A stretch of DNA of 64,000 bases from Dictyostelium discoideum (lineage: Eukaryota): NCBI GenBank assembly GCA_000004695.1, contig CM000152.2, forward strand, positions 1,856,001 to 1,920,000, in the 5' to 3' direction. The translations under genes and the position numbers were made by a program. How positions within the stretch are numbered: the first letter of the stretch is position 1; every line of letters starts with the position of its first letter. The notes beneath the pieces are model-generated. The model was not told where the DNA came from. It worked only from the letters and a program-made list of their open reading frames with translations, and did no database searches. This document shows positions 43,915 to 44,325 of this stretch, one piece after another.

Positions 43915-44325
43915 ATGATTAGAGAAGAACAGGTATTCATTGGTTCACATTTATTTCCACCACCCTATTGTATTGAAAATTCATTAAAAAAATTAGTTGA
44001 TATGTATAATGTATTAAAATTAAATGGCACAGATAGAATAGTTTTATCTTCTTGGTTAATGTATCAATTATTGGCACTTCATCCTTTTTCTGATGGTACT
44101 GGTCGTTTATCTCGTCATTTTTGTAGTTGGTCATTGCTTTCAAATGGTTCAATATTACCAATTTCTTTTGGTAATGTAAAAGGTGTAAATAAAGGTCATA
44201 AAACTTTGATTGTGTGTGTTCAGAATTCAAGATCAAATGTAGGTATTCCAAGTGCCCTTTCAACTAGAATTCTTTTATCTCTTTTTAATTCATTAAATAA
44301 TTTAGATTCAAAACAAAAACAATAA
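43915..44325 (+). CDS. small Fic/Doc-family protein (136 aa) with HPFSDGTGRLSR motif
   Basis: The motif HPFSDGTGRLSR matches the Fic core HxFx(D/E)GNGRxxR, with T in place of N. It lies at residues ~57-68, as in the 126-aa phage P1 Doc toxin. It is followed by a hydrophobic helix (HFCSWSLLSNGSILPISF), as in Fic folds. The ORF starts immediately after an in-frame stop and has Dictyostelium-like codon usage. Confidence 0.45.
   Translation: MIREEQVFIGSHLFPPPYCIENSLKKLVDMYNVLKLNGTDRIVLSSWLMYQLLALHPFSDGTGRLSRHFCSWSLLSNGSILPISFGNVKGVNKGHKTLIVCVQNSRSNVGIPSALSTRILLSLFNSLNNLDSKQKQ

Follow-up and report, generated by a model that had tools for sequence, protein, structure and literature searches.

The window, the whole 64-kb stretch of Dictyostelium discoideum DNA analysed here, is AT-rich (mostly 14-37% GC) and includes, on the forward strand, a Fic-like open reading frame (ORF) that opens with ATG and encodes 136 residues. 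The features of the locus, named according to the comparison with other strains given below (L001, L003 and L004 denote assemblies), are:

43386..43734, + strand: hssA-like two-exon gene, the upstream neighbour, found at the same place in strains with the full-length Fic gene; context, not part of the Fic gene
43735..43904, + strand: distal remainder of the ancestral intergenic DNA 5' of the Fic gene, running from the hssA-like stop to the junction; the proximal 200 bp of that ancestral DNA are gone
43904..43907, no strand: deletion junction; window 43904 corresponds to 9798 of L001 and 9785 of L004, and window 43907 to 11307 of both
43915..43917, + strand: start codon created de novo, ATG in strain AX4 as opposed to ATA (Ile439) in L001, L004 and D. 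citrinum
43915..44325, + strand: probable remnant ORF DDB_G0279299, 136 codons plus stop, equivalent to codons 439-574 of an ancestral 574-codon double-Fic gene
43921..43950, + strand: conserved Arg (R3, equivalent to R441 of the parent protein), then the flap beta-hairpin VFIGSH of the second Fic domain, placed by alignment, parent model and the topology of Kinch 2009
44080..44115, + strand: Fic motif HPFSDGTGRLSR, residues 56-67; the His is kept, with Thr (ACT) instead of Asn (AAT) in GNG and His instead of Leu at the next residue, 68, both replacements being specific to AX4

The Fic-like ORF and its neighbours

The ORF protein is identical to DDB_G0279299 of D. discoideum AX4 (XP_641780.1, UniProt Q54WZ7), for which the UniProt label "Fido domain-containing protein" is already known. 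The Pfam Fic/DOC profile PF02661 matches the ORF at E=6.4e-10 (40.2 bits, cut-off 24), and an exhaustive HMMER search identifies 317 library proteins as relatives at E<=1e-3; thus, the Fic similarity is real and far above chance. The PF02661 match is partial, covering profile positions 28-92 of 93 (ORF residues 7-73), and the ORF is, therefore, not a complete stand-alone domain. Within the match, HPFSDGTGRLSR agrees with the Fic motif HxFx(D/E)GNGRxxR at eight of its nine specified positions, the mismatch being Thr for Asn. The inhibitory-helix motif (S/T)xxxE(G/N) is absent from the ORF. The base composition (GC 28%, GC3 11%) is AT-rich. Several points made by the first-pass annotation of this DNA are upheld by these results, namely the position of a 136-residue Fic-like frame just downstream of hssA-like genes, its near-intact motif and genuine membership of the Fic/Fido family, and its native AT-rich codon usage.

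The hssA-like neighbour ends at 43734, on the same strand and 180 bp 5' of the ORF; it is recognised by eye, as its PF05710 score (19.4 bits) falls just under the cut-off of 21.4. The small ORFs that flank the Fic-like ORF have no Pfam match. A unit of ~1.2 kb that carries an hssA-like gene is directly repeated (window ~41070-42255 and 42639-43800, 84% identity), and between its copies lies a third hssA-like ORF, which is shorter and on the minus strand (42671-42826). The cluster likewise lies upstream of the full-length Fic gene in L001 and L004. Local gene duplication is also seen further downstream, where tandem Band_7 (vacuolin-like) genes (window ~52600-54350 and 55277-56944) share ~88-90% DNA identity.

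The parent double-Fic gene and the deletion in AX4

While a word-indexed homologue search with the 136-residue ORF returned the ORF alone, the exhaustive HMMER search revealed the parent. The best seven relatives are proteins of 574-617 residues, to which the ORF aligns at the extreme C-terminus. The closest of these, the 574-residue hypothetical protein ACTFIW_006538 (P0002), is itself from D. discoideum and is identical to the ORF at 128 of 136 residues (94%) over its residues 439-574, such that the ORF represents the 3' 24% of a 574-codon gene. A second full-length allele, ACTFIR_008250 (P0201), comes from a third assembly and is 96% identical to P0002. The other full-length relatives are those of D. 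citrinum (ACTFIU_003601, 87%), Heterostelium album (PPL_00220, 45%), Balamuthia mandrillaris, the chytrid Borealophlyctis nickersoniae and environmental eukaryotic contigs. Every full-length member has two Pfam Fic domains and two motifs of the form HPFxDGNGRLSR, one near residue 213 and the other near residue 494-534. Outside D. discoideum, the C-termini of the amoebozoan and chytrid double-Fic proteins are 40-49% identical to the ORF. The ORF thus occupies a position orthologous to that of the amoebozoan double-Fic proteins, yet only the last 136 residues remain, which makes it a fragment of a family member. The family is patchy, being found in Amoebozoa and one chytrid, and may have been acquired horizontally.

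The full-length gene is carried by two assemblies labelled D. discoideum, GCA_054859355.1 (L001) and GCA_054859385.1 (L004), and the 136-residue ORF by the window and by a chromosome-scale, AX4-like assembly, GCA_054883475.1 (L002). The two forms of the gene are flanked by the same genes, which encode a NifS-like aminotransferase, a phosphomannomutase and an M20 peptidase upstream and proteins of ~790 and ~575 residues, followed by a Ras GTPase and a Band_7 protein, downstream. By blastn, L001 5-9798 aligns to window 34221-43904 and L001 11307-21725 to window 43907-54347; the corresponding breakpoints in L004 are 9785 and 11307. Between the two blocks, ~1.5 kb of L001 and L004 is replaced in the window by the dinucleotide AT (43905-43906), and this is the only break in collinearity. 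In L001, the hssA-like stop is at ~9590 and the Fic ATG at 10001; the missing segment comprises 200 bp 5' of the start and 1306 bp of coding sequence, equivalent to codons 1-436. Since all outgroups carry the full two-domain gene, the AX4 lineage has, on this comparison, lost the segment by deletion; an insertion in the other strains is rejected on the same full-length two-domain homologues.

Nothing further of the gene is apparent in the window or among the AX4 proteins compared. A tblastn search with seven full-length homologues finds no piece of the N-terminal part in the 64-kb window beyond the ORF, and neither the 90% cluster of P0002 nor the homologue-search matches include a full-length AX4 protein. 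The first-pass annotation had noted that the ORF might prove to be part of a longer spliced gene. The longer gene exists, in the evolutionary sense, while the splicing does not apply: the parent gene has just one exon, of 1725 bp, in L001, L004 and D. citrinum (L003, GCA_054859145.1), such that there is nothing to splice onto the ORF, and the rest of the gene is deleted. A last exon of a spliced gene is also rejected by an in-frame TAA two codons upstream of the ATG (43906-43908, formed at the junction) and by the separate hssA-like gene that lies 5'.

The same junction bears on whether AX4 might in fact have the full gene, with 1.5 kb collapsed in the reference by an error of assembly or annotation. 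The AT-rich intergenic DNA of Dictyostelium is hard to assemble, and the left breakpoint borders a T-rich repeat in L001 and L004; both points favour such an artefact. The right breakpoint, however, lies in unique coding sequence, and L002, an independently built assembly, matches the window without a difference over a 471-bp segment (window 43860-44330) that spans the junction and the ORF; its annotation also includes the 136-residue protein (KAM9949248.1). The identical junction in L002 in effect excludes an assembly collapse, and an artefact is accorded hardly any probability.

Over window 34221-54347, L001 and L004 diverge from the window by ~8-12% overall, indels counted, and by a pS of 0.02-0.12 in the genes nearby. 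A divergence of ~8-12% is large for variation within D. discoideum. The two assemblies may, judged by their sequences, represent a divergent lineage or a cryptic species. In D. citrinum (L003 1-21725), the orthologue sits among genes for a terpene synthase, calcipressin and MoeA; the locus, as judged from these neighbours, has moved, or the region has been rearranged, between close species.

Fold elements of the fragment and comparison with Doc, FICD and IbpA

The Fic core is a six-helix bundle (a' and a1-a5) with two further helices (a6 and a7) and a hairpin between a2 and a3, in which a conserved Arg follows a2 and the motif lies between central helices (Kinch 2009, PMC2686095). An AlphaFold2 model of the parent, built from a 36-sequence alignment, is of good quality (pLDDT 88.5, pTM 0.88) and has FICD (E=2e-8), the best fold match, and BT_2513 (3CUC) as Foldseek matches. 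The single-sequence AlphaFold2 model of the ORF (pLDDT 36.6) is uninformative on fold and was not used for fold search. With helix labels assigned on the parent model by the topology of Kinch 2009, the elements of the second Fic domain are, by parent residue:

319-332: extra N-terminal helix, absent from the ORF
336-355: equivalent of a', absent from the ORF
363-377: decorating helix, absent from the ORF
398-414: a1, absent from the ORF
422-432: a2, absent from the ORF
R441: conserved Arg, in the ORF (R3)
446-451: hairpin, in the ORF
455-474: a3, in the ORF
479-493: a4, in the ORF
494-505: motif, in the ORF
500-514: a5, in the ORF
532-544: a6, in the ORF
551-571: a7, in the ORF

The ORF does not form a complete Fic core, as five helices of domain 2 (319-432) precede residue 439. 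Of the six bundle helices, a', a1 and a2 are missing from the ORF, as are the inter-domain region and all of the first Fic domain; the model suggests that the two Fic domains of the parent pack together. Among the retained elements, R441 and G448 are invariant in the family alignment.

The first Fic domain is preceded, in all full-length members, by the sequence SNxIE(D/E) at residues ~64-69, and domain 2 has no conserved counterpart of it in these proteins. Engel and colleagues are said to have described, in 2012, the inhibitory-helix motif (S/T)xxxE(G/N) and, with it, autoinhibited Fic classes I-III. SNxIE(D/E) is a near match to this motif, with Asp/Glu after the Glu where Gly/Asn is expected. 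The search for an inhibitory helix proposed by the first-pass annotation thus leads to residues 64-69 of the parent, which are deleted in AX4.

The ORF had also been read at first as a complete, minimal Doc/Fic enzyme (a toxin, AMPylator or kinase) that stands alone in the amoeba after horizontal transfer from bacteria or phage. Doc of phage P1 is the toxin of the Phd/Doc type II toxin-antitoxin system and a kinase of EF-Tu. It belongs, like the ORF, to the Fido superfamily, PF02661 spanning both Fic and Doc. The motif of the ORF is nearly canonical, and the two proteins are of similar length with the His at a similar distance from the N-terminus: residue 56 of 136 in the ORF and residue 66 of 126 in P1 Doc. 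This resemblance in length and His position is a numerical coincidence that reflects no homologous layout. The Doc motif HxFx(D/N)(A/G)NKR has Lys for the second Gly, a G/K variant of the Fido motif (Kinch 2009, PMC2686095), and so differs from the D-G-T-G-R of the ORF, which has no Lys; the ORF also begins after a2, keeping the beta-hairpin and missing a1 and a2, while Doc has no hairpin (Kinch 2009, PMC2686095). The NCBIfam Doc model TIGR01550 scores the ORF at 13.5 bits (E=0.061), well below its cut-off of 38.65, and no Doc entry is among the best 50 Foldseek matches of the parent. No antitoxin-like neighbour flanks the ORF, the upstream gene being the eukaryotic hssA-like gene and the flanking small ORFs those without a Pfam match. 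Unlike Doc, moreover, the ORF originates in a eukaryotic multidomain gene, of which it forms codons 439-574 and which is intronless and intact at the locus in other strains. A stand-alone minimal Doc/Fic protein is thus highly improbable and, in the form first proposed, is refuted by the synteny and the deletion.

The closest solved relatives lie elsewhere in the family. The best sequence matches of the ORF among solved structures are human and Caenorhabditis elegans FICD (E=2.4e-6, ORF 3-83 against FICD chain 209-288), followed by the second Fic domain of IbpA and by bacterial class II Fic proteins. The alignment begins at the FICD flap (RTTQVLVGHH in FICD, REEQVFIGSH in the ORF) and, thus, the ORF starts in the middle of a Fic domain. 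FICD/HYPE is a metazoan AMPylase/deAMPylase of BiP in the endoplasmic reticulum (PDB 4U04, 6I7G, 6ZMD). It shares the flap, HPFxDGNGR and the class II layout, with an N-terminal inhibitory helix, with domain 1 of the parent. FICD has, however, one Fic domain where the parent has two, with an identity of about 20-30%, and no TPR family of Pfam is detected in the ORF or the parent, whereas the insect FICD matches carry TPR families. The ORF itself, unlike FICD, covers just the C-terminal part of one Fic domain. IbpA of Histophilus somni (PDB 3N3U, 4ITR) resembles the parent in having two Fic domains in one polypeptide, and its Fic2 domain is among the sequence matches of the ORF (E=1.5e-4). By contrast with the parent, it is a secreted bacterial effector of very large size that has further domains, and structurally it matches the parent weakly (TM about 0.22-0.42). 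The ORF is, in sum, neither a Doc toxin nor a toxin-antitoxin component nor an orthologue of FICD.

Changes on the AX4 branch and the standing of the fragment

Changes on the AX4 branch are polarised against D. citrinum, the outgroup, with both full-length alleles taken as sisters. The new ATG lies 8 nt from the junction. Besides the ATA to ATG change, the replacements specific to AX4 are N62T (AAT to ACT), L68H, V83I, E88V and M99I, for a branch total of six nonsynonymous and four to six synonymous changes. All nine full-length members examined have the motif Asn in both of their domains, and Thr occurs in the AX4 fragment alone. The side chain of this Asn contacts the bound phosphate (Kinch 2009, PMC2686095), and the first-pass annotation was, therefore, right to regard the Asn to Thr change as one that strikes a functionally relevant residue. 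Compared to L001, the fragment has a pN of 0.025 and a pS of 0.124, while conserved neighbours have a pN of 0.002-0.006 and a pS of 0.02-0.08. The excess of replacements on the AX4 branch relative to other branches is not significant in this small set of substitutions (Fisher p=0.47).

The explanation in which good confidence is placed is that DDB_G0279299 is a young, probably non-functional, 5'-truncated remnant of an intronless double-Fic gene of ~574 codons. In the AX4 lineage, a deletion of ~1.5 kb took the proximal 200 bp of upstream DNA together with codons 1-436, and the ATA to ATG change at former codon 439 opens the present 136-codon frame. Of the second Fic domain, this frame retains the Arg, flap hairpin, a3, a4, catalytic loop and a5-a7; its losses are a', a1 and a2, the region between the domains, and all of the first domain along with SNxIE(D/E). 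It also has replacements confined to this lineage (GNG to GTG, and Leu to His after the motif) at otherwise invariant positions. With half of the helical bundle, a mutated phosphate-binding Asn and the partner domain of the model missing, the fragment is predicted to form no stable Fic active site and to be a pseudogene-like relic that lacks AMPylation, kinase or toxin activity.

Set against this reading are the open frame, the retained His, the branch dN/dS that is not significant and the chance of about 2-3%, at the substitution density of the branch, that a start codon arises within a few codons of the junction. In an unlikely alternative, the fragment is an expressed and neo-functionalised half-Fic: the remaining 5' DNA would drive its transcription, the new ATG would start its translation, and the product would act without catalysis, for instance as a flap or peptide-binding module or by interference with another protein. 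The 170 bp of the former upstream region that are kept may, judged by the sequence, still drive transcription of the fragment; the lead-in to the ATG is A-rich (aaaacaatATG); and both His56 and R3 are preserved. The intact frame is, by contrast, expected by chance: 6.9% of possible point changes make a stop, such that a frame with ~10 neutral substitutions stays open with P ~0.5, and the open 136-codon frame is, thus, uninformative on function. The three missing bundle helices and the non-conservative AX4-specific changes at invariant positions also count against a half-Fic with a role of its own, as does the lack of a partner Fic protein to regulate in AX4 among the homologue-search matches. 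The protein is, in addition, not among the listed entries of a life-cycle proteome, in the part of that source available, though the neighbours pmmA, M20 peptidase and vacC are named there. The ATG beside the junction could be due either to selection for translation or to mutagenic repair there. It is quite improbable that selection favoured a start codon 8 nt from the junction and that AX4 makes a 15-kDa half-Fic (flap, catalytic loop and a3-a7) with a new and possibly non-catalytic role.

What looked like a phage-type Doc toxin in an amoeba is most likely ordinary gene decay, and the database entry DDB_G0279299/Q54WZ7 describes a gene fragment. The DDB_G0279299 identifier is not found in literature text; nothing is found in the searchable literature on Fic/Fido proteins in Dictyostelium, nor on this AX4 entry as a truncation or its origin in a two-Fic-domain family. 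The more interesting object is the parent, a conserved and uncharacterised eukaryotic protein with two Fic domains that is found in Dictyostelia, Balamuthia and a chytrid and is unlike FICD. Some strains labelled D. discoideum carry its gene and others do not, the standard AX4 apparently having no intact copy. For this uncharacterised amoebozoan family of cytosolic enzymes with two Fic domains, a common laboratory strain would be a natural null, while some wild strains keep the full gene. Legionella injects its own AMPylators into the host. The apparent null bears on studies of endogenous AMPylation in Dictyostelium and on Legionella host work.

The alleles of the strains that retain the gene have changes of their own. 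In both full-length D. discoideum alleles (L001 and L004, 10001-11725), codon 494 encodes Tyr in place of His (H494Y), giving the second-domain motif YPFSDGNGRLSR. Homologues further away all keep the second-domain His, as do D. citrinum and the AX4 fragment, and His56 is the ancestral state; thus, the second Fic domain may, by its motif, have lost catalysis already in those strains that retain the gene. Over codons 1-438, the L001 and L004 genes differ at 24 nonsynonymous and 17 synonymous codons, a pattern which suggests that the N-terminal three quarters evolve fast, either under weak constraint or by diversifying selection.
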